Source of the DNA: a virus
Length of the DNA stretch: 64,000 nt
Reading direction: 5' to 3' (one strand)
IMG/VR virus record: IMGVR_UViG_3300030085_003750
Span: 1 to 64,000 of that record
The notes beneath the pieces were generated by a model. That model was not told the DNA's origin. It saw only the letters and a list, made by a program, of their open reading frames with translations, and did no database searches. Both the position numbers and the translations under genes were made by a program. Below, one piece after another: positions 2,694-35,300 of the stretch. Numbering within the stretch: the stretch's first letter is position 1; each line of letters starts with the position of its first letter.

Positions 2694-2700
2694 CTAATTA
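2694..2700 (+). promoter_or_regulatory. Putative phage late-promoter motif CTAATTA
   Basis: Intergenic copy of the CTA(T/A/C)TTA motif found upstream of about nine genes; followed by RBS GGAGGA at 2732-2737. Confidence 0.55.
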
Positions 2701-2743
2701 TAGTTGATAATTTTCATTTTTTGCTTGACTCGGAGGAACCATT

Positions 2744-2998
2744 ATGATAGATTTAAGAAGAATGACGAGAAAGTTTATTATGAACGAAGGTAAACAACAA
2801 GTCAATTGGCAAGCACTCGTTCAATCTATCGAGGAAGCGTTATCCTCTATCCGCACAAGTTCACTTCGAGATAATAGAAGAGTTGAACTTGCAAAACACA
2901 ATCTAAAAGAAATTAAGAGACATTTAAGAAAAGCAAACGAGAGAATTGAGACTCTCGAAGAACAACTTCGTATCCTAGAAGAAGGAACAAAGGAGTAA
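2744..2998 (+). CDS. Small coiled-coil hypothetical protein, possibly head-internal
   Basis: 84-aa ORF with strong RBS, heptad-rich C-terminus and N-terminal MIDLRRMTRKFIMNE leader. Confidence 0.7.
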   Translation: MIDLRRMTRKFIMNEGKQQVNWQALVQSIEEALSSIRTSSLRDNRRVELAKHNLKEIKRHLRKANERIETLEEQLRILEEGTKE

Positions 2999-3002
2999 GT
3001 AC

Positions 3003-5954
3003 ATGGGCGGTTTAGGCGGTCACGTAGACCATCTTTATGACAACACAGACTTATCTTTTACAGACATGATAAAGATAATGACTGCTGCATCCAACGGTGA
3101 GATTACTGGTGGAGAGAAATTAGACGGTCAAAACCTCTTTGTATCTTATTCTGTAAAAGACGGAAAAGCAAAAGCAGCAAGAAATGTAGGAAATGTAAAA
3201 AAAGGTGGTATGGATGCGGAAGCACTTGCTGCTAAATTTGCTGGTAGAGGGACTCTAGAGAAAGCATTCAATGGTGCATTCGAAGCATTTGTGGATGCTG
3301 TTTCTCAAATGTCTGATGAAGTGAAAATTAAAGTGTTTGGTCCCGATGCAAATATCTTCTATAATGCAGAAGTTATGGACCCTGAAAATCCAAACATCAT
3401 CAATTATAATTCAAAGAGTCTTATCATTCATCGAGACGGACACGGTGAGTATGACAGAGAGACTGGTAAGGTTACTGATAGAGATGTATCCTCAGAAGCA
3501 AGTCTTCTCGGTAATGCTCTTAAATCTGTTGAAAAATCAGATAAAGAAGGTGCATTCGGAATAGAAATGAAGGCAGTTGAAAGACTAAGAGCATTAGATA
3601 ACGATGAGGTACTAAATTCCACAACATCTCGTTTAAAACAACTACTCTCACAGTCAGGTGTAGGCGCAGGTGCAACAGTTGGCGAATATATTGTGTCTAA
3701 ACTAGATGCTCTTATCGAAAGAATGTTCCCAGATTTAGACGAAGATACTAAAAAATTACTAATGCAGCGAATGTTTGGTGTAAAAGGCACGACTGCAACA
3801 CAAATATACAAGCGAATTAGTGACCCTTCTGTTAAATCAGCAGTTCGAGACTTCATTAAGGACCAGAAACGAGTTAGAAAAGAAATTATTTTCCCTCTTG
3901 AGGACATTGTACATGATTTTGCGGTGGCAATGCTTGATGGATTGAAGTCAAGATTCGTTCTTTCCCACAAAGACGAGATAAATCGCATCGCAGACAGAGT
4001 AGAACAAGCAATTGCAGAGATTGAAGCGGAGGGTGATGAGACAAAAACCCAAAAACTTAAAGCAAGTTTAGGTAAATTAAAGAGTTTAGACAAGATTTCA
4101 TCCTCAATGGAAGGTTTTGTGTTCGCTTATGATGGTCATACATATAAATTAACAGGTTCTTTTGCTCCTGTTAACCAAATTATGGGATTATTGCCTTGGG
4201 AAAAGAAAAAAGGTGGTGATTTAAACGAAAACCAGGAAGAAACTCAAAGAATTGGGTTATTTCCAGGTAAATTCAAACCGCCGCACACAGGGCACTTCCT
4301 CGGTGCTAAGGAAATGATTGACTCTTACGGCGCTGATAAGGTTTTTGTCATTATTTCAAAGAAGGCAGTTAAAAGAGAGACCGAGAAGGGATTATTTATT
4401 GTTTATCCAGAGACTTCTGAGAAGATTTGGAACAAATATATTGAAGAGAACGGATATAAAGGCAAAATTGTTGTTAATATCTCTTCCTATCCTTCGCCAA
4501 TTGCAGATTCTTACGAAATGTTGAAAGAATTTCCTGCTGGAACAACAGTTTTGGTCTCAAAGGGCGAAAAAGATGCAGACGACCCTCGTTTTGCTCGTAT
4601 GCAACAGTTTATTGAAAAGAATAACTTGCCTGTTAGGGCAGAATTGGTGGATGGTTCAATGTCCGATACAGGAGCAAGCGGAACCAAGTTAGGTTTAGCG
4701 GTCGCTAACGGAGATTTTGAAACTTTTAAGAAAATGATTCCTCTTTCTGGTGGTTCTGCAATGGAACTTTGGGAAGAACTTACAAGTCAAGTAATTGATG
4801 AGCAAAATGACATTCCTTATCAATCTATTTTAGAAATGATTGACGAGGCAATCAACATTGATGACAATCCTGTCCCTGGTGGGCAGTTAGGCGGTCCACA
4901 AAGGACTGGTGAAGACGACTCAACCGACGATGAAGAATCCGAAACAGAAAAATCCAATAAGAAAGGGGGTGAATCTAATACAGAGGTTGAGGTTACAACA
5001 AAGACTGTTGTAAATGTTTCCGTAAACGGCAATGATGTTAGTGTCACTACAAATGAAGGTAGTGAAGAGGAAACAAGAGAGGTTATCAGTGAAGAATCTG
5101 AAGAACCTTCAGAAAGAGGTATTATTAATTTAGATTTTGGAATGGGTCTGTCTCGAATGGATTTACCTCAAATAAAATCTACTGATGTTCCAGAATTTAT
5201 TGAATGGTTAGATAGTAAAGATATAGACTCTGTGAAAACCTCTATGCAAGTTGGAGAACTTACGCCTATACAAAAGGAAATTAATTTATCAAAAACTGAT
5301 TCGATGGCAGCGAAGCACAGTTCGGGCGAAATTGATTTGTCCAAGGGCAAACCTGTTATGGTATCAGGTGATGAATATCTTATAGACGGTCATCACCGAT
5401 GGTATGCCCTTAGAGAGTTAGACCCAGATAATAGACTCGATGTCATCATGATTGATTCACCTATTCTGGACCTAATTTCTCTTATGAAAGAATTTCCAAA
5501 GACTTCTTACAAGAAACCAGTTGATGAGATGTCTATCGAACCAGTCAATGAATCTTACGGAAAGGTCGATGGCGGTGGACCGAGTGTTATTAATGTAGGC
5601 AAGATGAAAATCGTTATCGACGTGGAAGATATGGATTTGAAACCTTCCAAGCATGGTGAGGAGCGACGATTCAGGCACGGTGCAGGTAAAACTATATCCA
5701 AAGACTCCATTTTGCAAGCAGCAGAACGTGGGTTGGGTCTAGTTATACAAGACTATGCAAATGGTGAGATTGGAAATGGAGAAGCGTTTGTTATTCGACA
5801 TAAAGCAAATGCTAAAACACCAGCATTGAATTTGGTTTGTGCGTTAGAAATGAAAAAAGGACCAGATACGATGAAAATTATTACTGTCATGAGAAAAGAC
5901 GATTTTAAGACGGATAACTTCGGTGGTGGAAAACAAAAAACTTACAATGTTTGA
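3003..5954 (+). CDS. Multidomain protein: ATP-dependent ligase-like (DUF6267-type) domain + HxGH cytidylyl/adenylyltransferase domain + ParB/Srx-like domain + C-terminal BECR/DUF4258-like putative RNase
   Basis: EKLDG (3114-3128) and EGFVF..YKLTG (from 4110) resemble ligase motifs I/IV/V. FPGKFKPPHTGH (HTGH 4284-4295) is a HIGH-type motif. LIDGHHRW (DGHHRW 5385-5402) is the ParB signature. SKHGEERRFRH...ISK...IITVMRK resembles BECR/DUF4258. Confidence 0.7.
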   Translation: MGGLGGHVDHLYDNTDLSFTDMIKIMTAASNGEITGGEKLDGQNLFVSYSVKDGKAKAARNVGNVKKGGMDAEALAAKFAGRGTLEKAFNGAFEAFVDAVSQMSDEVKIKVFGPDANIFYNAEVMDPENPNIINYNSKSLIIHRDGHGEYDRETGKVTDRDVSSEASLLGNALKSVEKSDKEGAFGIEMKAVERLRALDNDEVLNSTTSRLKQLLSQSGVGAGATVGEYIVSKLDALIERMFPDLDEDTKKLLMQRMFGVKGTTATQIYKRISDPSVKSAVRDFIKDQKRVRKEIIFPLEDIVHDFAVAMLDGLKSRFVLSHKDEINRIADRVEQAIAEIEAEGDETKTQKLKASLGKLKSLDKISSSMEGFVFAYDGHTYKLTGSFAPVNQIMGLLPWEKKKGGDLNENQEETQRIGLFPGKFKPPHTGHFLGAKEMIDSYGADKVFVIISKKAVKRETEKGLFIVYPETSEKIWNKYIEENGYKGKIVVNISSYPSPIADSYEMLKEFPAGTTVLVSKGEKDADDPRFARMQQFIEKNNLPVRAELVDGSMSDTGASGTKLGLAVANGDFETFKKMIPLSGGSAMELWEELTSQVIDEQNDIPYQSILEMIDEAINIDDNPVPGGQLGGPQRTGEDDSTDDEESETEKSNKKGGESNTEVEVTTKTVVNVSVNGNDVSVTTNEGSEEETREVISEESEEPSERGIINLDFGMGLSRMDLPQIKSTDVPEFIEWLDSKDIDSVKTSMQVGELTPIQKEINLSKTDSMAAKHSSGEIDLSKGKPVMVSGDEYLIDGHHRWYALRELDPDNRLDVIMIDSPILDLISLMKEFPKTSYKKPVDEMSIEPVNESYGKVDGGGPSVINVGKMKIVIDVEDMDLKPSKHGEERRFRHGAGKTISKDSILQAAERGLGLVIQDYANGEIGNGEAFVIRHKANAKTPALNLVCALEMKKGPDTMKIITVMRKDDFKTDNFGGGKQKTYNV

Positions 5955-5963
5955 GGAAAAATA

Positions 5964-6734
5964 ATGATTGATAGAAATGAAATGATTCAAGAACTTAAAC
6001 TTCGTGAATTTATTAAAAGAGCGATTCGAGTTCGTGCAGCGAATAAAAAACAATCCCGCATTTGGGAAGAACATGAACTGAGAAGTATTATTCGTAAACT
6101 TCTTAAAGAAGCACCAACAGAAAAGGTTCAGCATCGCTCTACTGGTATAAATGTACTAGAAGATTTACTGAAGAAAATTATTCCTGTAATTGAGCAGGAT
6201 TATAAAATGCTTACAACTGATGTAGAGCAGAGGAAATCTTTCTCTGCACATATCACGGTTGCTACCGAAAATGCACTTGCACCTGTCATGGCGAATAAAG
6301 AAGCGGGAGCAGAAGATGATAAATTCATTGGTATCAGCGAGATTGAAAACATTAATGAAATAGAAGTTGAAATTGGTGAAAGACCAGAAGACGATGATGC
6401 TTTCATTGATATTGATGCAGATGAAAAAGAAGAGGAAGAAGAAGGAAACTTTGAGAACCTTGGCGATGAAGATAAGACTGGTGCAAATTTTGCTCAAGCG
6501 ACTTTTGATAAAATTGAAAAACAGATTATTGATGCTTATTCGCTACTGAGCAATGAAGAGGACCAAAAATTATTTTATGATTACCTTATCACAAATATAA
6601 AATTATACTTTGATAAATTCGAGGCAGAATTGGACCCTGATATTGCAGAACCAACGACGGATGAGTATGAGGATGAAAAAGATAATATCGAAGGTGAAGA
6701 GGAACTTGGTGGAGAAGAAGAGTTAGAACTATAA
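5964..6734 (+). CDS. Acidic hypothetical protein, possibly prohead core/internal
   Basis: 256-aa ORF with RBS GAGG. Basic N-terminus with two LR(E/S)(F/I)I(K/R) helices, then a very Glu/Asp-rich body. Confidence 0.7.
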   Translation: MIDRNEMIQELKLREFIKRAIRVRAANKKQSRIWEEHELRSIIRKLLKEAPTEKVQHRSTGINVLEDLLKKIIPVIEQDYKMLTTDVEQRKSFSAHITVATENALAPVMANKEAGAEDDKFIGISEIENINEIEVEIGERPEDDDAFIDIDADEKEEEEEGNFENLGDEDKTGANFAQATFDKIEKQIIDAYSLLSNEEDQKLFYDYLITNIKLYFDKFEAELDPDIAEPTTDEYEDEKDNIEGEEELGGEEELEL

Positions 6735-6752
6735 CTTTTTGTTTTCTACTGA

Positions 6753-6759
6753 CTATTTA
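6753..6759 (+). promoter_or_regulatory. Putative late-promoter motif CTATTTA
   Basis: Intergenic (gactatttataac), upstream of RBS GGAGGA at 6781 and ATG at 6794. Confidence 0.55.
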
Positions 6760-6793
6760 TAACAGTTATTTTTTAAAATTGGAGGACATTTAA

Positions 6794-7188: not shown

Positions 7189-7530
7189 TTGCATAACGAA
7201 CGACCCCACAAAACTTATTCTGTTTCAAAGCAGTTAAAAAATGAAAATAAAATAAATGAACTCTTTGAGATTCAGTTATCCCAACTGAGTCTTGAAGAAG
7301 TCATTGCTTTGAAATTAGAACTCGCCACAAGAGAAATGGACGGGAAGATGTATGGTCTTCCTATCTGGAAAAACTTACCTATGATAATTAAAGACGCAGT
7401 GCTCAGGGCAGCAATTTCTGGTTCTGCCACCCGACGAGATGCTGCAAGATTCCTTGGAATCAAATATTCCAACCTCAAGGAAACCCTTAAAAATTATGGA
7501 CTTTTTCATTATTTCAAAAAAAGAGGTTAA
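7189..7530 (+). CDS. Fis-type helix-turn-helix DNA-binding protein
   Basis: C-terminal AVLRAAISGSATRRDAARFLGIKYSNLKETLKNYGL matches the Fis/NtrC HTH_8 pattern (AARxLGI...L..KLK.YGL). TTG start with GAGG RBS. Confidence 0.65.
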   Translation: MHNERPHKTYSVSKQLKNENKINELFEIQLSQLSLEEVIALKLELATREMDGKMYGLPIWKNLPMIIKDAVLRAAISGSATRRDAARFLGIKYSNLKETLKNYGLFHYFKKRG

Positions 7531-8815: not shown

Positions 8816-9327
8816 AAAATTGGAAGGTATTAAAGTTAGATAGTTCATACCGCCCTATCCAAGTTATCGACTGGACTGAAGCGTTCAATATGGTTTTCTC
8901 TGGGCGAGCAAATGTTGTCGAATACAAACAAGACTGTTTCGTACATTCAGTAAGTGAAAAGTTTCAAGTTCCTTCCGTAATAGCAATTAATAGATATGTT
9001 AAAAAAGCAAGAGTCAATCTTAGAGTTACAAGAAAAAATCTTTTTCTAAGAGACAATTATATTTGTCAGTATTGTGACAAAAGATTTACAAAGGGTGAAC
9101 TCACCATTGACCACGTAACTCCTAAATCAGCAGGTGGTCCGAAGACATGGGAAAACATCGTCACTGCTTGTAGGAAGTGTAATCAGAAGAAAGCAGATAA
9201 ACTTCCGAGAGAAGCAAACATGTTTCCAACGAACCCGCCAAGGACACCATCGGCAAAGATGTTTGTTAACATAGTTCAAAATGTTGATGAGTGTTGGAAG
9301 AAATATATAGAACCTTATTCTTATTGA
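8812..9327 (+). CDS. HNH endonuclease (McrA-like, zinc-binding)
   Basis: VLKLDSSYRPI N-terminus; RDNYICQYC...LTIDHVTPKSAGG..TWENIVTACRKCNQKK. Confidence 0.9.
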   Translation: MKNWKVLKLDSSYRPIQVIDWTEAFNMVFSGRANVVEYKQDCFVHSVSEKFQVPSVIAINRYVKKARVNLRVTRKNLFLRDNYICQYCDKRFTKGELTIDHVTPKSAGGPKTWENIVTACRKCNQKKADKLPREANMFPTNPPRTPSAKMFVNIVQNVDECWKKYIEPYSY

Positions 9328-10211
9328 TTTACTTTCTTATAATCGAAAATAACTGCTTCACCACGTTTAATTGCAGCAAGTGCCTCTAGAAGCGTATTTC
9401 TCACTTGCTCAAGTGTGGCACTATAACTGACAGGACTGTTACACTGTCCTGTGATTAAATTACAGTATCTTGAATCAATGGAGTGGACCATACCGACAAT
9501 CTCTCCATTTTTATTAACAATTGGAGAACCACTCGAACCAGGAGCAGCACTTAAATTATACATGGAAAACAATCGACCTGTTTTGTCAGTTTTAATTATA
9601 AATTCTCCGTTGTATAATCCTTCTGTAAAAAACACTCCACCACCCGTTGCGCTTGGATTATAAATTCCTTTCGGTGCTGCAATGTTGTATACTTTATCTC
9701 CGTATTGCGGCGCAGCACCTACTTCCAAGATTGGAGCGTTAATAGAGGTTTCTACGATGCAGGTATCTGCTGACACGTTTCTAACCCAGGGAAATTCTTT
9801 AACTTTAAATTTTTTTCCATAAGCATTAACGACTAGCATACTTGGTTTTGTTATAACTTTAACTTTTCCTTTGAACTTTAAGTTATTTTTTATATGTGAA
9901 TAAACTTTTCTATCAAAATCTTCTAAAGAATATTTTTCATTTTCACAAATGTGGTCTGCCGTAAGAACAAGAGTCCTTGGCGTTTTACCTGGTAGGTACT
10001 CGTTCCATACAACAGCACCAGAACCTGTTGATTTCATATTTAACAGTTCTTTACACTCATTTGTATTTTCAGTGGTCTCGCCACAAACTTCAATCTTTAC
10101 TGACTTATTAATTTGAACAAAAGAATTTTTTATTGACGTTGGGTGTTTCGTTAAAGTGGTACAACCTCCGACAAGTCCAATAAGCATAAGCAAAAAAAGT
10201 TTTCTTATCAT
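9321..10211 (-). CDS. Trypsin-like (S1) serine protease, probable lipoprotein
   Basis: VLTADHIC (His), ADTC (Asp), AAPGSSGSPI (Ser). N-terminal hydrophobic stretch ending LVGGC. Minus-strand RBS AGGAGG at 10221-10226. Confidence 0.85.
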   Translation of the reverse strand: MIRKLFLLMLIGLVGGCTTLTKHPTSIKNSFVQINKSVKIEVCGETTENTNECKELLNMKSTGSGAVVWNEYLPGKTPRTLVLTADHICENEKYSLEDFDRKVYSHIKNNLKFKGKVKVITKPSMLVVNAYGKKFKVKEFPWVRNVSADTCIVETSINAPILEVGAAPQYGDKVYNIAAPKGIYNPSATGGGVFFTEGLYNGEFIIKTDKTGRLFSMYNLSAAPGSSGSPIVNKNGEIVGMVHSIDSRYCNLITGQCNSPVSYSATLEQVRNTLLEALAAIKRGEAVIFDYKKVNQ

Positions 10212-10300: not shown

Positions 10301-11638
10301 ATGTCGAAGAAAATTTTTGTTATTGACACAAGTGTTTATCTTACAGATTTCTCATCTTTAAAAGCATTCGAGGACAATGATATTATCATCCCTTTTAAAG
10401 TTTTAGAAGAAATTGATAAGCACAAAAAACGACAAGACTCAGTAGGGTCTAATGCCAGAAATATTATAAGAACACTGGATGAACTTAGGGAGATTGGTTC
10501 TCTTCACGAGGGTGTCTCAATGGGCGATGGATTTGGAACGGTAACTGCCCGAGGTTATGATGCAGAATTAATTCCTATTGATTGGGACAAGAAAGACCCA
10601 GATAATCAGATTATTGCAACTGCGCTTACAATAAAAAAAGAAACACCAGATACCAAGGTTATATTGGTGTCTCGTGACATAAACCTTCGAGTGAAATGTG
10701 ACTCAATAGGTTTGGAAACAGCAGACTATCAAGCAAGTCAAATTATAGAGTCACTCGACGAAATTTATTCTGGATATACAGATTTTGTTATGAGGGATAA
10801 GGATATTGATGATTTTTATTTAGGTGAAAACATTTACGCACCAATGCCAGAAGAGGATGAGGTTCCTTTAAACGGAAATGAATTTCTTGTAATGACTTCT
10901 GAGATAAATGAAAAGAAGACCGCACTTGCAAGATTCAAGAATTATAACACACCGCTTTTAAAAATTCCAAACAAAAGGGTAGTATGGGGTATAAAACCTC
11001 GAAACAAGGAGCAGACCTATGCTCTTGACCTTCTAATGGACCCTTCTATATCACTCATAACACTGGTTGGTAAAGCAGGTTCAGGTAAAACTTTGTGTGC
11101 AATTGCAGCAGGTCTTCAGCAAACACTTGATGACCATAGTATGAGTACTCAGAAATCCATCTACACAAGACTTATTGTCTCCCGCCCAGTGGAACCACTT
11201 GGAAAAGACATTGGTTTCTTACCAGGGACAATGGAAGAAAAGATGGAACCTTGGTTAAAACCAATTCAAGACAATCTTAAATTTCTAATGGTAGATGATT
11301 CAGTTACGCTTCAAGAGTATATGGAGATGGGAAAGATTGAGGTTGAGGCATTAACCTATATCCGTGGACGTTCAATATCAAATGCCTTTATTATTATTGA
11401 TGAAGCACAGAACCTAACAAAGCATGAACTTAAAACTATCGTAACCCGAGTTGGGGAAGGAACCAAACTTATTCTTACTGGCGATGTTGAACAAATTGAT
11501 AATATTTATATCGACGAGAGAACCAACGGTTTGACTTATGCCGTTGAAAAGATGAAGGAGCACGAAATTACAGGGCACGTCACTTTAAAGAAAGGCGAGC
11601 GTTCTGCTATAGCAACATTAGGTGCTAAAATTTTATAA
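10301..11638 (+). CDS. phoH: PIN-domain PhoH-family ATPase (PhoH2/YlaK type)
   Basis: PIN: VIDTSV...VLEEIDKHK...DNQII...LVSRDINLRVK. PhoH: GKAGSGKT, SRP, IGFLPG, RGRS, IIDEAQN, GDVEQID. Confidence 0.9.
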   Translation: MSKKIFVIDTSVYLTDFSSLKAFEDNDIIIPFKVLEEIDKHKKRQDSVGSNARNIIRTLDELREIGSLHEGVSMGDGFGTVTARGYDAELIPIDWDKKDPDNQIIATALTIKKETPDTKVILVSRDINLRVKCDSIGLETADYQASQIIESLDEIYSGYTDFVMRDKDIDDFYLGENIYAPMPEEDEVPLNGNEFLVMTSEINEKKTALARFKNYNTPLLKIPNKRVVWGIKPRNKEQTYALDLLMDPSISLITLVGKAGSGKTLCAIAAGLQQTLDDHSMSTQKSIYTRLIVSRPVEPLGKDIGFLPGTMEEKMEPWLKPIQDNLKFLMVDDSVTLQEYMEMGKIEVEALTYIRGRSISNAFIIIDEAQNLTKHELKTIVTRVGEGTKLILTGDVEQIDNIYIDERTNGLTYAVEKMKEHEITGHVTLKKGERSAIATLGAKIL

Positions 11639-11644
11639 TTTCTG

Positions 11645-11653
11645 TGCTATTAT
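11645..11653 (+). promoter_or_regulatory. Possible extended -10 promoter (TGcTATTAT) for a leaderless mRNA
   Basis: TGn + TATTAT ends 7 nt before ATG 11660, and no SD precedes that ATG. Confidence 0.35.
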
Positions 11654-11659
11654 AAATCT

Positions 11660-12337
11660 ATGAAAAAATATATTACAAAATCACATAAAAGTATCATGAG
11701 AGAGAGAAAAGAATTTACTATCTTTGGTACAATTAACGTCTTTGTCAAAGACTCATTACCTCAAGAAATAAATTTAACAAATACTATCATGGAACTTGAA
11801 GACACAATACCTCAACATTTATTTCATGACATTGACATGATAATAATAGGTCAATTTAATGAATTGAACAGTCGAGGAATCCGTGCCGCTTACATGGACG
11901 GCGCTGTCTATGCGACGAATGAACAACCTTCTGAAGAACAATTATTTGAGGACATTATACACGAGATTGCTCACGCAGTTGAAAAGTCATATGAATATGA
12001 TATTTATGGAGATGATTCCGTCGAAAAGGAATATCTCGGTAAGAAAAAAAGATTTTTAGACTTACTTCAAGCGAATGGAATAAGAGTTCCTAATAGAATA
12101 AGATATGAAACAGAATACTCTAAACTATTTGATGAATTTTTGTTTTATGAAATAGGGTACGATAAGGTTGCACCGTTTAGTCAAGGATTGTTTTTATCTC
12201 CTTATGCCTCGGTGTCGGTATCTGAATATTTCGCTACTGCTTTTGAAAGATATTTTGTTCAGTCTGATGCCTACGTTAAGGAAATTTGCCCACAACTATT
12301 TAATAAGTTAAAAGAAATTTCTGAGATAGGAGATTAG
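11660..12337 (+). CDS. Putative zincin-like metallopeptidase
   Basis: IIHEIAHAVE (HExxH) plus downstream YASVSVSEYFATAF supplying a likely third Glu ligand. Confidence 0.6.
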   Translation: MKKYITKSHKSIMRERKEFTIFGTINVFVKDSLPQEINLTNTIMELEDTIPQHLFHDIDMIIIGQFNELNSRGIRAAYMDGAVYATNEQPSEEQLFEDIIHEIAHAVEKSYEYDIYGDDSVEKEYLGKKKRFLDLLQANGIRVPNRIRYETEYSKLFDEFLFYEIGYDKVAPFSQGLFLSPYASVSVSEYFATAFERYFVQSDAYVKEICPQLFNKLKEISEIGD

Positions 12338-12338
12338 T

Positions 12339-12692
12339 ATGAAAAAGAAGTTTATTTTAAAACTTGATATTATTGAAAATAAGAAAAAGATTTTCGCACA
12401 TATTAACAAAAAGTCAGGTGTAGTAGTTACTGAGAAAGAAGTCAGAAAAGAACTTGTTAAAAATAATATAACCGCAGGTGAAGTGAAATCAAAGACTGAA
12501 AACCTTTTTGTTTTTGACTTGATTAGAGAAGATTTAAATATGGTTGATTTAACAGAAAGTTATGGTGCATCTGAACTTCCAGTGTATAACCCTGAGTCAG
12601 AAGAAAAACCAAAACCTGTCCGTAAAACAACTACAAGAAAACCTAGAACAAGAAGAAAAACTACTACAACAAAGAAACAAACAGAAAATTAA
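12339..12692 (+). CDS. Hypothetical protein with Lys/Arg/Thr-rich basic tail
   Basis: 117-aa ORF, AGGAG RBS, C-terminal RKTTTRKPRTRRKTTTTKK. Confidence 0.65.
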   Translation: MKKKFILKLDIIENKKKIFAHINKKSGVVVTEKEVRKELVKNNITAGEVKSKTENLFVFDLIREDLNMVDLTESYGASELPVYNPESEEKPKPVRKTTTRKPRTRRKTTTTKKQTEN

Positions 12693-12695
12693 TAC

Positions 12696-12724
12696 TTGAC
12701 TAAATCTACTTTTTATGTCATAAT
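12696..12724 (+). promoter_or_regulatory. Sigma70-type promoter TTGACT-N17-CATAAT with TG extension
   Basis: -35 at 12696-12701, TG at 12716-12717, -10 at 12719-12724, upstream of the nuclease/glycosyltransferase/sigma operon. Confidence 0.6.
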
Positions 12725-12755
12725 GTGATTGTAACATAGAGGTAGAGGTTCAATT

Positions 12756-13532
12756 ATGTCTCAACACATTTCGTTTTCTGCATTGAAGAATTGGAATCAA
12801 TGCCCATATTACTACAAACTAACTTATGTCGATAAGATAAAAGGTTTTGTAGGAAATCATTATACTGCATTTGGAACAGCACTTCACGAAGTTTGTGAAA
12901 CTAAGGCAGAGAATCCTGCTTTTGATGACGAGCAAAACTTATTTGAGACTGCTTTCTTACGAGAACTAAAAAGTCTTCCTGAAGATGTTCGCAAAGATAT
13001 TAAATTAAAAGATGTAGAACAAATGCGTGAACAAGGTAAGAAGTTATCTGTTATCGCTGTTCCTGCGCTTACCTCTCACTTTGGCGAGTTTGAAGTTGTA
13101 TCAACAGAAGAGGATTTATATGAGTCCATTGAAAATTTTGAGGACTACAACTTCAAAGGATTTATTGACTTAGTAATAAAGACACCTGATAACAAATATC
13201 ATGTTATCGACTGGAAGACTTGCTCCTGGGGATGGAATACGCAAAAGAAATCTGACCCAATGACAACTTACCAATTGACTTATTATAAACATTTCTATAA
13301 TCAAAAGCATGGTATTCCTCTCGAAGATATCGAGACACATTTTGCCCTCTTAAAGAGAACTGCTAAGAAAGATTTGGTAGAGATATTCAGGGTTACAAGT
13401 GGTAAGAGAAAAATCAGCAATGCAATGGATTTGCTGAACAGAGCGTTATACAACATTCAAAGCGGAAAATTTATTAAAAACAAGTTGGCATGTAGCAAGT
13501 GTGAGTTTAACAACACACCTGAATGTCCATAG
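12756..13532 (+). CDS. PD-(D/E)XK Cas4/RecB-like exonuclease
   Basis: ISFSAL...QCP, GTALHE, GFIDL, VIDWKT, QLTYY and C-terminal CSKC-x7-C (four Cys, possible Fe-S cluster). Confidence 0.85.
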   Translation: MSQHISFSALKNWNQCPYYYKLTYVDKIKGFVGNHYTAFGTALHEVCETKAENPAFDDEQNLFETAFLRELKSLPEDVRKDIKLKDVEQMREQGKKLSVIAVPALTSHFGEFEVVSTEEDLYESIENFEDYNFKGFIDLVIKTPDNKYHVIDWKTCSWGWNTQKKSDPMTTYQLTYYKHFYNQKHGIPLEDIETHFALLKRTAKKDLVEIFRVTSGKRKISNAMDLLNRALYNIQSGKFIKNKLACSKCEFNNTPECP

Positions 13533-13540
13533 GAGAAGCA

Positions 13541-14797
13541 ATGGCAAAAAATAAAAAAATAAAAATTTTAACTTTGTCCGACCACCCGTTATTTTCTACT
13601 GGTGTTGCAATACAAACAAAAATGTTTATTGAGGCAATGTTAAAGACTGACAAATTTGAGTTTGTATCTCTTGCAGGTGCAATAAAACATAGGGATATGT
13701 CTCCCGTAAAGACTGAGCAATATGGAGATAAGTGGAAAATATTTCCTGTTGAGGGTTATGGAAGTCAAGAGATTGTTCGCTCAATTCTTCGTACCGAAAG
13801 ACCAGATATCATGTGGATTATGACAGACCCCAGGTACTGGAGATGGTTATGGAAAATCGAAGATGAAGTTCGAGCACAAGTACCTATTTGTTACTATCAC
13901 GTATGGGATAATGGACCTGCACCGAAATATAATAAAAAGTTTTATGACTCAAATGACTTGATTGTTTCCATTTCCAAATTGACAGAGGAAATGGTTAACG
14001 AGGTTGGAACAACGGCAAAACATATCCGCATTCCTCATACTATTGATGAGAGTGTTTATAAAATATTACCAGATGAAGAAGTAGCACAGTTTCGTAAAGA
14101 GCACTTTGGAGATGATGATAAAGTTATTTTCTTTTGGAATAATAGAAACACTCAGAGAAAGAATGCAACAACTCTCATGTGGTGGTTCAAAGAATTTTTA
14201 GACGAAGTTGGGCATGATAAAGCAGCATTGCTTATGCATACTAATCCAGAAGAACAGACAGGTTCAAATTTGCAAGAGAGTGTTACAGAACTTGGATTAG
14301 ACAATGGTGAGGTCATGCTTTCACCTTTAAAATATGAATCAGAAAAGATGGCAATGCTCTACAACTCAACTGATTGCACTATCAATATTTCAGATGCAGA
14401 AGGTTTTGGATTATCTACATTAGAATCTCTTGCTTGTGGGACACCCATTATTGTGTGTAAGACAGGTGGATTACAGGAGCAGATAACTGATGGAGAACAA
14501 ACTTTTGGCATTGGCATTGAACCAAGCACGAGAACAATCATCGGTTCACAGCAAGTTCCTTACATTTATCAGGATAGGATAAGTAAAGAAGATTTTATTG
14601 AAGCATTAAAGAAATTCTGTTCTCTATCGAAAGAAGACAGGGTAAAACTTGGGCAACTTGGTTATAATCATGTTGTGAAAAACTATAGCAGTAAAAACTT
14701 TTCTGAACAGTGGGAAAAGGCGCTTATTAGACTTCATAAAACAGCGGGTTCTTGGAAAAATAGAAAGCATCAAAACTGGGAGATTATTGAATTATGA
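13541..14797 (+). CDS. GT-B glycosyltransferase, family 4
   Basis: SDHPLFSTGV N-terminus; NRNTQRKN; EGFGLSTLESLACGTPII..KTGGLQE. Start moved to ATG 13541, which follows the AGGAG RBS. Confidence 0.85.
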   Translation: MAKNKKIKILTLSDHPLFSTGVAIQTKMFIEAMLKTDKFEFVSLAGAIKHRDMSPVKTEQYGDKWKIFPVEGYGSQEIVRSILRTERPDIMWIMTDPRYWRWLWKIEDEVRAQVPICYYHVWDNGPAPKYNKKFYDSNDLIVSISKLTEEMVNEVGTTAKHIRIPHTIDESVYKILPDEEVAQFRKEHFGDDDKVIFFWNNRNTQRKNATTLMWWFKEFLDEVGHDKAALLMHTNPEEQTGSNLQESVTELGLDNGEVMLSPLKYESEKMAMLYNSTDCTINISDAEGFGLSTLESLACGTPIIVCKTGGLQEQITDGEQTFGIGIEPSTRTIIGSQQVPYIYQDRISKEDFIEALKKFCSLSKEDRVKLGQLGYNHVVKNYSSKNFSEQWEKALIRLHKTAGSWKNRKHQNWEIIEL

Positions 14798-29386: not shown

Positions 29387-32300
29387 ATGAGCACAAAAGA
29401 TTTATTTAATAAAGGTAACAAGGTTCTTACAAAAAGTCAAGAAGAAAAAATAAAAAAAGACTTGGAATCTCCTGAACTTGCAAGAGATGTTGTAAGGGCG
29501 AATAATAAATTTCATTCACATATTGATTTTTCTAAACCAGAGAATTTTTCTTTTTACGGTTCAGCGCAGAAATATTATGAAGATTCATTTAACAGAATTT
29601 ACCAAACGTATCCCTACGATGGTTCACACTCTGAAAAAGAAAAATGGTTTCAAGATTCTTCTGAACTCGACTTGTGGATTCTTGATAACGCTTATCCCAA
29701 GAGTACTGGTTATGTCCGTCTTGGAACAGAACAATCTATCTTTGTCAAGGGCGGTCCAAATAAACAACCAGGTATCATCGAGGGTGAAAAAGAGGAATTA
29801 TCAAAACAATTCCCGATAAAACAAGGCAACTCAAATATTTGGGATACTTCAATCTACAGAAACTCTAATTTATATCTTGACGCAGAGATTGGTAATACTA
29901 TAGAATTCTGGGCAAAGATGGATAATCCAGATATAACTGTTTTTCCTTTTGTAATCGGAAATATAGACTCGACAAGAATTTCTTTTAAACACAATAATGG
30001 TCTTATTGAAATTGATTATACAGACGACAGTGGCAGTGGATTTTCGACTATTGACGCCATCGGCGCTACGTTCATGGAATCAACTTGGAATCATTTCGCT
30101 TTTACATTTATTAATGACGGAGCAAATGCAAAGATTGAGATTTACAAAAACGGAACTCTTTTAAGAACTCTCAAGGGTGGTTCTGCCCTTTCTAGTATTT
30201 CACAAGAAGAACTTTACTTAAATATAAACGGAACAATGACCGCAGTTAACGGAACTAGAAGTAATACTGTTGATGGGTTATATATTGATGAGTTTCGTTT
30301 TTGGAAGAGAAGAAGAGCGGAAGAAGAGATTGCAAGATTTTGGCACACGCATGTACACGGCGGTACAAACACGGATGAGAAAAAATATAACTTAGAGAAT
30401 AGAAAAGTAGACCTCGGTGTTTATTATAAGTTCAATGAGGGTATCACTGGCAATACAAATATTGATTCAACTGTTCTTGACTACTCTGGTAGAATATCGA
30501 ACGGAGAAATAACAAATTATGACAAGACGGTACGAAATACAGGGTCGTCATTTGATGAGTCTGGATTTTTCAATGTCTTAGAAGACAAGGAACCTATTAT
30601 ATACTCTGCACATCCTGATTTTGTTTCTGTTAAGCAGTCATATATGGATGAAGGTTTGAACTACGACTATACAAACAACTCAAGTATTTACCACACAATG
30701 CCTGCTTGGATTATCGAGGAGGATGAGGAAAAGGGAGAAAATGTAAAAGAACTTTCACAAGTCATCTCCAGTTACTTTGACTCGGCACAAATAAAGATAA
30801 AAGAACTTGTAAGTCTTAAAGATGTAGAGTATCATACATTAGAGGAAAGAACAAATAAACCTTATTCTCTTATCAGAAAAACATTAGAGTCAGCAGGCAT
30901 GGTTGTTCCTGACTTGTTCACAGAAGCAAGCGCTTTTGAGGAAATCCTTTCACGAGGAGAGCAAGAGAAGTTTGAGGAAAAACTTCAAGACATAAAGAAT
31001 ACCATCTACCAAAACATTTATAATAACCTTTCTTATATCTATAAATCAAAGGGTACGGAGAAAGCATTCAGAAATCTTATCCGTTGTTTTGGTATTGACG
31101 ACGAACTCGTAAAGATAAATTTATACTCTGACGGTGCCGACTATACTCTGGAAGACACCAGAAGAACAACCGCTATTAAGAAAAAGTTTGTCGATTTTAA
31201 TGATGCTGATAGACAAGATGGTCTTATATATACGAAGGAAGACCCTAGTAATACTAATTCAACTTCTTATATTAGAGGCGTCCCAGGCGGTATGTCACCA
31301 AATTTATCCTTTACTTTTCAAACAGAATTAATATTCCCAAAGAGGGTATCTACGGACCATCCACAATATGACCCACCAACAAATTTGGAGGAGCATATTG
31401 CTTATCTAGGCAGATATCTTGGTACCTACACTTCTAATTCCATCTTCGATTTGAAGGCGGTTAAAGAAAATAGCGACCCTCTTTCTGAAAATGTAAAGTT
31501 TGTTCTAACTTTCAACGGACAAACACTAGAAACAGATTATTTTAAGTCAGTTTATGAAAATTCAAAGTGGAACCTTGCAGTTAGACTTGTACCAAAGAAA
31601 CGCCTCTCCAGCGTCGTTTCTGGCGGTTCTACGACGGATTTTACAGCAGAGTTATATTGCGTGCGAATGCTTGCAGATGTTATAGAAGACGAAGAGTGGG
31701 TTGTAGGCACAGTCTTGGAAGCAGATGCGAGAGATATTTTATCATCAGATAAGTTTGTATCGGTTGGTGCCCTTCACTCATCAGGAAATCCAGAAGTAGA
31801 ATCATTAGATAAGGACACGAGAATTAAGATTTCTTCTACTTTGTTCTGGTACGATGATGTCTCGAATGAGGAAATTCGAGCACATGCGTCCGATGCTTCG
31901 AACTTTGGTAGACTACATCCAAATGAAGAAGCATACATGTTTGACGAAGAATTCAACACTGACACCTCTTCTGCAATACAGGTTCCAAGAAGAGATACAC
32001 TGGTGATGCATTGGGACTTCTCGGAAGTTTCAACTACTGATATAAGTGGAGAGTTTATTGTTGACGATTTATCTCAGTCTCTTGAAATTCAAACAGAGAC
32101 AACCTCATCAGTTGCTACAAACCAGAATTCAATAGTTTTTGACGGTTCAGATGACCATATTATTGTTAGTGACCAAGACGAATTCAGTCCCACGGATGGA
32201 GTAAATGATACACCTTTTTCAATATCTGCATGGGTTTATGTCGAAGACGTAGCGACTGCTAACGGACCTTTTGTTACTAAATCTAATAACTCAGGTTCAC

Positions 32301-35300
32301 AGAAAAACGAGTATATTTTTAAACAACAAAATGGTGAGATACAATTTTTTCTATACGACAGTGACCTGAATGCTCAAGGAAACGCTATCCGAGCACAGGC
32401 GACTGTTGTATCTTTAAGTAATGCAACATGGCACCATGTTGTGGCGACTTATGATGGCAGTGCAGACGCATCTGGAATTAAACTTTATACAGATGGGGCA
32501 CTAACAGCATCAGCAAACACTGAGGCAGGTACATATGTGAGATTGAGAAATACAGTAACTCCTCTAACTTTTGGTGCTACTACGGAACTTGGTAATAATA
32601 ATAGAATATTTGAAGATAGATTAGCAGACATTTGTATTTTTGACAAAGAATTAAGCGCCGCAGAGGTGACGGAAATTTTTAACGGAAACTCAGTAAAGAA
32701 TATGGATGAATTTTCTGATACTGCTTCTATTATCTCTTGGTGGAAGATGGGCGACCACTTGGATAACCTTTCAACTGATGGAATTAAAGATTATGTTGGC
32801 GGGTTTCATGGAACACTACAAAATGGAGCAGCAATAGCAGTAGAACCAGGATTATCTTCCGACACAGAAACTTCTGTTGTTTCATCGCTTATTCCGATAA
32901 ATAAGAATTCGATTGCCTTCGATGGTACAGCAGCATCTATTGCTGACACGGATATTGTTATATCTTCTGATGATAATGCTTTTACCTTTTCGGATTCAAC
33001 AGATGTTAGCAACGGAACGGTTCACAAACCTTTTACAATTTCTGCTTGGATTAATCCTAGTAGTCTCGCAGACCGAGGAGCAATTATAACGAAATTTTCT
33101 TCAATGTCTGTTGGAGACCCAACAAAAAGAGATACAGAGTTTGTATTCTGGCATAGAGACAATGGAGAACTTCAGTTTATACTTTACGATTGCAGTGCTC
33201 ACTCCACTGTCAACAACATCACAATTACTTCCAATACTTCTGTTTTGACTGCAAGTCAGTGGCAACAAGTAGCAGTAACTTTCGATGGTAACCCAGACCT
33301 CGCATCTACTTCCTTGGGTATGAAATTGTACGTCGATGGTCAAGAAGTTCCAAGCACTCAGGTCAAAGCAGGGACATATCAAATTGTAAGAAACACAGAA
33401 TCGCCTGTGACCATCGGCGCAGCGCATTACGACCACACAAATGTACCAGATGCATTTCTTACGTTGTTTGAGGGAAACATTGCAGATACAGCAGTCTATA
33501 GCAAAGAACTTAACTCGTTTGAGATACAAGAAATATACAACGGTGGTAAAGTAAAGGACTTGAATGATTCTTCTACTTACGACAATATTATTTCCTGGTG
33601 GAAAATGGGAGATGATATTGACTCGGCAACTCCAAATGGAATTAGAGATTATGTTGGCGGGTTTCACGGAACAATGCATGGTCAATGCTCCATCCAACCC
33701 GTATTTGGGTTAGAATCAGATTCTACTAACAGTTTACTTAGCAATTCGAGATTTGGTTGGTTCACTGACCTTGTAGGTCGTGAGATAACTGGTCGAGGTA
33801 AATATTTCACAGCAGATGATAAACAGGTTGTTAATAGAGAATACATATATTCTGCAAAACATAGAACACCAGAGGTTATTAATTCTGAAGACTTAGTTGA
33901 GATTAGAACACAAGACGATTTGACTTTTACAAAAGATGCACAAGTTGTGACTCACTTCTTTGCAGCAGAAAAGAGTATGTATCAGGTCATCTCTGACGAT
34001 ATGATAAATCTTTTTGCTACTATCGTAGAGTTCAACGATTTGATTGGGCAACCAGTCAACAGATACAGACTACAGTATAAAGCGTTGGAAAAGTTCAGAG
34101 CACGGTATTTTGAGAAAGTTAATAATGTACCAAGTTTAGAAAAGTATATTGAGTTATACAAATGGATTGATTCTTCCATTGGTTTGATGTTACAAGAACT
34201 TATTCCAGTGTCTAGTAATTTCTCTGCTGATTTAAGAAATATGGTCGAGTCGCACGTTCTTGAGAGAAATAAATATTGGACAAAATTTCCAACATTAGAG
34301 ATGGCAGGCGAACCACCTCTCGGTATTGTAAAAGGTATTAATGAACTTACATATAACTGGAAAGACGGTCACCCAGATTATCAAATTTCAGAAGCAACGG
34401 TAGAATTTTTTAATGATTCCGCTTCTGATTATGACAACAGGTCGTGGATGATTACAGACAGCGCTGGATTCATATCGCTAGTGGCATTTGATGACGACAA
34501 TGTTTTTCCAACAGGGCATGTTGTTTTATCAAACCCAACGCAAATAATGGTGCAGGCGCAAATATTTGGTTTGACCACTAAGGAACAAATTGCAGAACAG
34601 TTCGCATTGGCATTTTCATCAATACCAAATCTATCAGCAACATTAAGTGATAGTACTGTGATTATTACAGGTTCAACTCCTCTACACGCAGGAGGAGTTC
34701 CTTTTATTTCTTTTTCCAGTTCAGCATCGAAAACTTCCTTCACTGAAGTTGAATCTTCTCTATGGTATGACCAGAGAGTTCAAGGTACCGATGCGCTTGT
34801 CACGACTGGTGACACCGATGTTGATGAAAATCGAGAAATACTTCGTAGAGTATCTACAAGGAAGACAGGTGCGAATACTCAAGTCACAAAACGTGGGTCT
34901 GATTTCGTAGAAGAAGATAGACCAATTCTGAGAGAATCTCCCGCAGGACTAGGTATTCCAGGAGCAGTTTACTCGGGGCAAGCATATGTCATCAGAGCAC
35001 TTGCTAAACCCTATAAGTTAAACCTAGACATTGCTCCTACAATTCATGGCGGTGCGAACTATTCTCCAACAACAAAAGACCCGAATAGTTTTGTTCGAGC
35101 GTCAACTAAAGTTTCTAATTCTTCTGGTATTGCAGTCACTTTTGGTACAAACCCAGTAATCTATCAGGGATTTTCTTACGATGACCAATCTGTTAAAAGA
35201 ACAATCAACATCGTTGTGGAGGATTCAACTGTAGATTTTGGCGCAGACGGGGACTTTATTTATCCTTACTATGAGACAGAGGCAGACCCAACACCAGAAA

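Follow-up and report, generated by a model that had tools for sequence, protein, structure and literature searches.

Ligase-nucleotidyltransferase proteins of T4-related marine phages as candidate substrates of the prohead protease

The first 64 kb of a 145-kb IMG/VR record (IMGVR_UViG_3300030085_003750, estimated to be 80% complete) were analysed in this work; this stretch of 64,000 nucleotides is named the window below. The source phage is uncultured, marine and related to T4. Its genome encodes a gp6-like baseplate wedge protein, a gp55-like sigma factor, a large terminase and a portal protein, the latter placing Microcystis phage Mel-JY01 (44% identity) and Flavobacterium phage immuto (42%) as its nearest cultured relatives. 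The gene under study codes for P0001, a protein with four different domains encoded between o84, for which no Pfam or PHROG family was matched, and d256 (Table 1). A previous reading of the window from its letters and predicted open reading frames (ORFs), without database searches (the sequence-only reading), had proposed that this protein is packaged in the virion, cut by the prohead protease into separate enzymes and injected. The single four-domain ORF was recovered as described there, with all quoted motifs at or beside the coordinates assigned to them. The packaging proposal is partly supported here, by evidence other than that on which it was originally based.

Table 1. Features of the P0001 operon, with window coordinates (pLDDT, predicted local distance difference test; Srx, sulfiredoxin; aa, amino acids; nt, nucleotides; the arrow follows the glutamate of hydrophobic-x-Glu sites).
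Feature	Coordinates	Strand	Description
GACTAATTATAG motif, candidate promoter	2694-2705	+	~50 nt 5′ of the first gene of the operon (o84)
o84, 84-aa coiled-coil protein	2744-2998	+	first gene of the operon, translationally close-coupled to the P0001 ORF
P0001, main ORF	3003-5954	+	single ORF, 983 aa; ligase-like, HIGH nucleotidyltransferase, ParB/Srx and RelE/BECR-like domains
RNA-ligase-type covalent nucleotidyltransferase domain	3003-4196	+	residues 1-398; model pLDDT ~90
Linker 1	4197-4241	+	residues 399-413; L407-N-E409↓N at 4221-4229; pLDDT <50 at 404-413
HIGH-superfamily nucleotidyltransferase domain, NMNAT/NadD-like	4242-4802	+	residues 414-600
Linker 2	4803-5150	+	residues 601-716, acidic, low-complexity; I613-D-E615↓A (4839-4847), I695-S-E697↓E (5085-5093)
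ParB/sulfiredoxin-fold domain	5151-5531	+	residues 717-843; pLDDT 90-98
Linker 3	5532-5576	+	residues 844-858; V848-N-E850↓S at 5544-5552; pLDDT <50; border of the C-terminal domain
RelE/ParE (BECR)-like domain	5577-5951	+	residues 859-983
d256, 256-aa acidic protein	5964-6734	+	last gene of the operon, directly downstream of P0001

Because sequence libraries said little about P0001 (its only Pfam match is a sub-threshold one to CTP_transf_like, 15.1 bits for a cut-off of 21), two pieces of the protein were folded with AlphaFold2 from alignments of the family: residues 1-612 (pLDDT 88) and residues 700-983 (pLDDT 79). A wide search with VIA-align matched model residues 3-395 solely to RNA and DNA ligases. 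Twelve ligases, ten of them RNA ligases, were aligned over residues 1-408 with Z scores of 7.2-10.1, and no other fold class was found by this method; they include NgrRnl (5cot, Z 10.1), T4 Rnl2 (8.8-8.9), Trl1-LIG (8.5), T4 Rnl1 (8.2) and REL1 (8.1). Note that the ligase fold came from this search, Foldseek on the 612-residue model giving HIGH-domain matches only. The resemblance to NgrRnl/Rnl5, T4 Rnl2, T4 Rnl1 and Trl1 (Z 8-10 over ~190-217 residues) comprises the order of motifs I, III, IV and V and the invariant lysine of KxDG. Motif I is K39-L-D-G (3117-3128), in which K39, D41 and G42 are invariant in alignments of 18, 42, 40 and 58 sequences. E123 (YNAE, 3357-3374), in motif order, E370GFVF of motif IV (4110-4124) and K382 of motif V (YKLTG, 4143-4157) are invariant as well. 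The domain differs from known RNA ligases by having a single motif V lysine, the second one being replaced by an invariant threonine (T384), by a long helical insert (residues ~200-360, ~160 residues before motif IV) and by a unique, invariant N-terminal element (GGxxGHxxHLYDN; G2-G3..G6-H7..H10-L-Y-D-N in P0001). It also differs in matching no sequence model of these enzymes: Pfam RNA_ligase, RNA_lig_T4_1 and DUF6267 found neither P0001 and eight members of the family at E≤1 nor 100 further members at E≤0.001. Membership of DUF6267 was rejected, no member scanned having a match and tblastn finding no cyanophage match at E≤5. A sequence-level link to T4 Rnl2 was likewise rejected, since hhalign places K39 on the lysine of EKIHGTN with a probability of only 1.4%. 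The ligase fold of the model and the 2H/LigT phosphoesterase domains present in 3 of 42 relatives, which link the family to RNA end-healing, suggest that the domain seals RNA ends.

The second domain (residues 414-600) matches NMNAT, NadD and NadM enzymes over their full Rossmann-like fold (Z 12-14.5 in VIA-align, Foldseek E 1e-4, PDB profile E 2.8e-5). A sequence search of the PDB with P0001 found NadD around the HxGH motif (E 0.002). This motif corresponds to P-P-H428-T-G-H431 (4284-4295), of which H431 is invariant and aligned to HxGH of NadD. CTP_transf_like matches 16 of 42 and 24 of 58 homologs (40/100 at E<1e-3). Identity to NadD, NadM and the NadR N-domain is 12-18%. The second motif, S559-G-T-K-L-G (4677-4694), has glycine in place of the arginine of ISxTxxR; SGTKLG is found in P0001 and its close relatives (≥62% identity), most other members having SGTxMR. 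The nucleotidyltransferase of the P0001 clade may be altered or weakened. Sugar- and glycerol-phosphate cytidylyltransferases gave weaker fold matches (Z ~8). The domain is closest to NMN/NaMN (nicotinamide and nicotinate mononucleotide) adenylyltransferases, a proximity from which we infer a role in the synthesis of NAD or nucleotides.

The third domain carries an invariant D795-G-H-H-R (5385-5399). Its residues 739-843 match the folds of Srx (Z 7.5), SerK (6.8), PadC (6.7) and pNOB8 ParB (E 1.5e-3), with a Foldseek probability of 1.0. Free-standing phage ParB/Srx proteins in BFVD are nearly superimposable on it (E 1e-12, root-mean-square deviation 2.0). In sequence libraries, Pfam ParBc_2 was found in 13 of 36 members, and PHROG 2859 and 3041, an unnamed family and a "cytidyltransferase" family, cover the ParB part. 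The DGHHRW motif and the fold are in common with the small-molecule kinases SerK and SbnI as well as with sulfiredoxin and ParB N-domains; unlike true ParB, the P0001 domain has no helix-turn-helix (HTH) or DNA-binding part. One homolog of this module forms a fusion with ART-PolyVal, a domain known from polyvalent proteins. The pairing of a possible kinase fold with the HIGH domain recalls NadR, and by analogy the two might form a NadR-like kinase plus adenylyltransferase pair. It is also possible that the ParB/Srx domain is a polynucleotide kinase. Among cultured phages (Aeromonas T4-like phages, phages of Ackermannviridae-type hosts and 61-kb Pseudomonas phages), both HIGH-ParB/Srx fusions and stand-alone ParB/Srx proteins of this subtype occur commonly, all of them annotated as hypothetical (BFVD, PHROG 3041).

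An alternative role for these two domains would be the modification of DNA or of nucleotide sugars together with nearby glycosyltransferases, the ligase-like domain then acting as an adenylyltransferase for a substrate other than RNA. Genes for DUF2827 and two glycosyltransferases are located less than 10 kb away, cytidylyltransferases are among the fold matches of the HIGH domain, and the HIGH-ParB fusions recur in phages. However, the best matches of the HIGH domain are the NMNAT/NadD enzymes, the ligase domain fits RNA ligases best and some relatives carry the 2H phosphoesterases mentioned above. DUF2827 and the glycosyltransferases, moreover, seldom show synteny with the ligase gene across related viral loci (4, 10 and 5 of 80). 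We regard a role in modification as very improbable.

The C-terminal domain contains KHGEERR (5649-5669) within the invariant set K883-H-G-E-E-R-R-x-R-H892, R932 and R964-K965. About 25 chains of RelE, ParE, HigB, YoeB, YafQ, BrnT, CdiA-CT and T4 RegB match residues 174-272 of the second model (873-971 of P0001) with Z 3.4-5.2 in VIA-align; Foldseek probabilities of RelE-like matches are 0.1-0.3. The domain resembles RelE/ParE toxins in a predicted alpha/beta fold of ~100 residues and in conserved His, Arg, Lys and Glu (KHGEERRxRH), features on which we base the suggestion that it cleaves RNA. It differs from these toxins in reaching Z 4-5.2 only, and no antitoxin-like partner was seen for it. 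Of the four folds announced by the sequence-only reading, those of the ligase, HIGH and ParB/Srx domains were thus borne out by models, while RelE/BECR is the weaker assignment. The description of the C-domain as DUF4258-like found no sequence support: nothing in the genome, P0001 included, matches DUF4258 at E≤10, and three of 36 homologs do so weakly (best E 0.062), so that this membership was rejected. Free-standing C-domain proteins of 142-215 amino acids exist.

P0001 has more than 390 full-length homologs, and 4301 representative clusters were found at E<1e-3. The common core of the family is formed by the ligase and HIGH domains, the C-terminal parts being variable. As the sequence-only reading had suggested checking, homologs were inspected for free or reordered domains: the ParB domain alone, the C-domain alone and HIGH plus ParB alone all occur in other proteins, and the HIGH domain precedes the ligase domain in Mel-JY01 (gene at 11243-13162). 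In cellular genomes only 14 loci were found among 185,579 species genomes, all of them in records of metagenome-assembled genomes (MAGs) and most on short contigs. Uncharacterised so far, the family belongs to T4-related marine myoviruses and is essentially viral. The gene order o84, ligase gene, d256, HTH-like protein gene is kept to different degrees in 80 related viral loci: an o84 homolog lies directly 5′ of the ligase gene in 47, d256 is found after or within the ligase gene in 77 and the HTH-like protein gene follows in 62. Over its full length d256 shows homology (30-52% identity) to a C-terminal region found in at least 43 ligase-HIGH proteins from other phages, which indicates a third core module that was split off in the P0001 lineage. 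In this lineage d256 is a separate gene, the ParB/Srx and RelE-like domains having been added and sitting in between. Library scans and the ESM Atlas gave no known family, structure or name for d256, its matches in the latter being unnamed virus-only clusters.

Other genes of the region deserve a brief description. The 113-aa protein encoded at 7189-7530, with an HTH-like C-terminal part, is the one found downstream of the ligase and d256 genes; it may be a regulator of the ligase block. A trypsin-like serine protease (Trypsin_2; 9321-10211, minus strand) is the product of the sole reverse-strand gene in that region. Its gene adjoins PIN-PhoH (10301-11638) and a homolog is present near the ligase gene in 36 of the 80 loci. 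A signal peptide and the lipobox LVGGC mark the protein for export, which is unusual for a phage protease. A single ORF of 4362 codons (29387-42475) lies directly after the baseplate-wedge-like genes.

The N-termini of 188 family proteins are found in two states. The initiator methionine is directly followed by Gly-Gly in 105 proteins, while each of the other 83 (83/83) has [LIVM]-x-E directly before the Gly-Gly, including ten whose ligase domain is internal. The extensions that precede Gly-Gly have 5-20 residues (mostly 5-9) or consist of a whole upstream domain. The sequence hxE↓GG (h, hydrophobic residue) is present in 33 of 34 extended forms from independent IMG/VR loci and in 9 of 9 from MAG contigs, two more MAG proteins starting directly at Met. 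In Mel-JY01, with its inverted domain order, it reads IAE↓GG. When representatives at 50% identity were considered, 44 of 44 extensions ended in hxE, and at least 23 switches between the two states were counted on a quick tree of 86 representatives. Hidden start codons were rejected as the source of the hydrophobic residue at P3, because its codons are mostly TTA or CTT.

A second site lies between the ligase and HIGH domains. In 104 of 115 clusters at 50% identity the linker has hxE, whereas the reversed motif occurs in 65, hxD in 33 and hxK in 58; hxE peaks 10-11 residues before PGxFKP and the HIGH domain. In a test based on composition-preserving shuffles of each linker in 34-41 non-redundant homologs, this linker alone exceeded expectation (site in 38/38 homologs vs 66% expected).

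A third line of evidence is provided by the gp23-type major capsid protein (MCP), encoded at 79555-81309 of the source genome. In this protein and in those of 10 relatives (11/11), the region of the T4 gp23 E65↓A66 cut carries the junction LL(R/K)E↓(S/A)(S/N)(T/A)MxxGDVEGFAAV. A 14-residue pattern from this junction recurs in 40 of the 188 family proteins, where it either follows the HIGH domain or lies ~50 residues short of the C-terminus. Its strict form in these 40 relatives, hxE↓xS(A/N)(M/T)xxGxVxG, is found at the place of P0001 linker 2. Across the six-frame ORFs of all DNA fetched (581,319 residues), the pattern is present only in MCPs and members of the family. For the MCP of the source genome a propeptide of 59 residues ending in LLRE↓SNTMAGGDVEG is predicted, and MCP N-termini begin with MS(V/I)L..LTE↓G, like the short extensions of ligase proteins.

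The free-standing C-domain homologs begin with MK.L(M/L)E.WR.(F/Y)L.E↓, a 14-residue leader that ends where the polyproteins have hxE; among 120 distinct sequences the latter is mostly positioned 28-32 residues (mode 31) N-terminal to (S/T)KHGEERR. The leader heads 13 unrelated ORFs in related loci, vs 2 internal matches (361,597 residues). Three ORFs of the source genome (127273-129267, 129271-129723 and 133272-133793) are also headed by it, in the form M(K/S).(L/I)..(E/D)NW(R/Q)K(F/Y)(L/M).E, and one of them codes for a 664-aa HD-domain (HD_4) enzyme with a DUF3008-like module. The shared leader may be a tag comparable to the capsid targeting sequence (CTS) of T4. ORFs that bear it are often clustered in tandem near the ligase gene, as for four ORFs at 11724-13736 of the related locus L076.

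A Peptidase_S77 protease gene of the gp21 type was identified in the source genome (64922-65362, 110 bits) and in 11/11 other carriers of the family, that is in 12/12 genomes tested. T4 gp21 cuts after L/I-x-E, and T4 virion proteins lose propeptides of 7-65 residues, Alt losing 7 (PMC9026906). The hxE junctions of the family fit this specificity and its extensions of 5-9 residues resemble the propeptide of Alt; some relatives are also like Alt in having a C-terminal tail behind a site. With Alt and IPI-IPIII the family also has in common the presence of a gp21-type protease in every genome tested and CTS-like leaders on related free-standing modules. The gp21-like protease itself (genome 64832-65443) starts with MNNKYLLRE↓YYELCE↓GG and has two hydrophobic-x-Glu sequences near its N-terminus, as T4 gp21 does (LIE-9).

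These data favour, by a small margin of confidence, what is also the simplest interpretation, namely that the family consists of substrates of the gp21-type prohead protease that are loaded in the capsid, cut at domain borders and ejected. The hxE↓GG sequences, the linker 1 site, the mimic of the MCP junction and the CTS-like leaders give the idea of packaging and cleavage a support that appears stronger than, and independent of, the argument made for it in the sequence-only reading. The protein would be made late in infection and taken into the prohead. Cuts after hydrophobic-x-Glu would then separate the domains and, in extended forms, free the invariant Gly-Gly N-terminus of the ligase domain. 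The separate enzymes would finally leave the capsid with the DNA.

Processing of the family might instead be real and take place outside the capsid, by another protease such as the neighbouring trypsin-like enzyme or by autoproteolysis. The Trypsin_2 gene is conserved near the ligase gene in the 36 loci given above, and some chymotrypsin-fold viral proteases cut after Glu. On the other hand, its signal peptide and lipobox indicate an exported enzyme, which makes processing by it unlikely, no peptidase domain was found within P0001 in Pfam and PHROG scans, and the junction motif that the family shares with the MCP propeptide speaks for the head protease. We give hardly any credence to cleavage outside the capsid.

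In P0001 itself, the glutamates E409, E615 and E850 of the three linkers stand at conserved positions, and the IDE↓A site of linker 2 is conserved in 38/41 homologs. Further sites are IDE↓Q (4794) and VDE↓M (5520). Linker 2 also has GGE657↓SNT... (4965-5030), a degenerate capsid-protein-like site. The motif GACTA(A/T)TTAT is found 5′ of o84 (at -50), of a 127-aa gene (at -41; 6751-6762), of the baseplate wedge gene and of a 355-aa scaffold-like gene (genome ~78390) that precedes the MCP gene. Its distance from the o84, 127-aa and scaffold-like genes is 40-65 nt, and the primase gene (53193) has in its place a sigma70-like TTGACT...TATCTT. The heptamer CTAHTTA shows no enrichment across the window (24 occurrences vs 34 expected). 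That the P0001 operon has a candidate promoter of the same class as the scaffold/MCP operon, an argument in which placement counts and not frequency, is suggestive only; the motif may represent the late promoter class of this phage lineage.

Several observations weigh against packaging and cleavage, in particular for P0001. The protein starts with Met-Gly-Gly and has no N-terminal extension, propeptide, CTS or leader; in its capsid-like site P3 is Gly and the P′ side is decayed. It has 20 [LIVMF]xE sites, 15 of which lie inside folded domains. The sequence-only reading had taken [ILV]-x-E sites as marks of the linkers, a proposal that failed the frequency test which it had itself set: no excess over composition was found in the HIGH-ParB linker (4.21 vs 3.75 expected) or in the ParB-C linker (1.80 vs 1.86 expected). 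The argument from linker frequency was dropped for this reason, and only position-specific conservation was counted. That reading had also placed the gene among head-like proteins; it lies ~55 kb from the head genes, in a conserved block outside the head module whose other products are the HTH-like protein, the lipoprotein protease and PIN-PhoH. The loss of the ISxTxxR arginine, and a RelE/BECR assignment that is the least certain of the four (Z 4-5), argue in the same direction. The cut position in the MCP is that given by alignment to T4, and the core motif lies ~10 residues past the T4 cut. Finally, the hxE before Gly-Gly and the IDE↓A site could be structural.

An alternative to packaging is an ordinary multidomain enzyme of RNA repair or nucleotide metabolism that stays in the cytoplasm and is never packaged, its hxE motifs being structural or due to chance in acidic linkers. 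T4 Rnl1, Rnl2 and Pnkp act in the cytoplasm. The Met-Gly-Gly start, the absence of site excess over composition in P0001 linkers and the location of the gene, which has PhoH, exonuclease and glycosyltransferase genes as neighbours and is remote from the head genes, are as expected for such an enzyme. This explanation does not account, however, for the hxE that ends every extension through ~23 switches and also when the domain order is swapped, for the 14-residue capsid junction that recurs only in the ligase-HIGH family, or for the free C-domain leader common to unrelated proteins. We consider a purely cytoplasmic enzyme rather unlikely.

The case for packaging is weaker for P0001 itself than for the family, given its Met-Gly-Gly start, its degenerate capsid-like site and the separate d256 gene. 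To these features the lost arginine can be added, and together they could mean that the family is packaged and processed but that the P0001 lineage left the pathway, the protein acting in the infected cell as one chain. Yet the 105 proteins that start with Met-Gly-Gly include members that keep strict capsid-like sites (P0106, P0116), so that such a start does not signify that the pathway was lost. Conservation persists in P0001 at LNE↓N, IDE↓A and VNE↓S, and its operon has the upstream motif in common with the scaffold/MCP operon. An exit of this lineage from the pathway is judged unlikely.

If the family is indeed matured in the prohead, the Gly-Gly N-terminus would acquire a specific meaning. 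It is invariant and would result either from removal of Met or from cleavage, which suggests that the ligase needs a free N-terminus; on this view the extended forms would be zymogens, with maturation confined to the capsid. We tentatively extend the proposal to precursors that are gated by the protease and delivered by the capsid: the ligase would require its free Gly-Gly, the copy of the MCP junction would serve loading or release and a toxic RelE-like module would be masked until the prohead cut. This fuller scheme is possible, and we hold it with less than even confidence.

The family differs from T4 Alt and IPI-IPIII, one of the two known systems to which it is closest, by carrying several enzymes per chain with predicted internal cuts and, in relatives of P0001, a mimic of the MCP maturation junction; P0001 has no N-terminal propeptide. 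Polyvalent proteins (Iyer et al. 2017, PMC5512222), the other of these systems, similarly combine disparate enzyme domains in one chain, including ParB/Srx and BECR-type RNase-like ones, and are predicted to be delivered with the DNA; the fusion of one ParB homolog to ART-PolyVal is a further likeness. Unlike them, P0001 and 100 relatives have no zincin MPTase, ArdC-N hub, MuF or portal fusion, and the processing proposed here would fall to the prohead protease, not to a peptidase contained in the protein. That survey lists no RNA-ligase or NMNAT-type domains and states that 2H domains never associate with RNA ligases (PMC5512222), and a survey of jumbo phages treats RNA ligases and NMNATs as separate systems. 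The ligase-HIGH fusion is described in neither the polyvalent-protein nor the jumbo-phage survey, and no published description of the leader, of the MCP junction mimic or of this fusion was found in the literature searched.

To our knowledge, T4 is the only well-studied myovirus that loads enzymes in its head by means of a cleavable tag, and it does so for a handful of proteins. The present analysis reveals a family of thousands of uncharacterised proteins, joining an RNA-ligase-like to an NAD-synthesis-like enzyme, that shows sequence signatures of the T4 pathway. If the proposal holds, the host would receive an RNA ligase and an NAD-type synthetase among the earliest phage activities. Capacities for RNA repair or nucleotide resynthesis would enter in finished form together with the genome, at the time when host defences such as anticodon nucleases or NAD depletion act. 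The family would also define, by its unusual N-terminal element, a branch of RNA-ligase-fold enzymes that is new, and its junctions and leaders would provide a simple rule for predicting from sequence the injected proteins and enzyme sets of uncultured T4-like phages.

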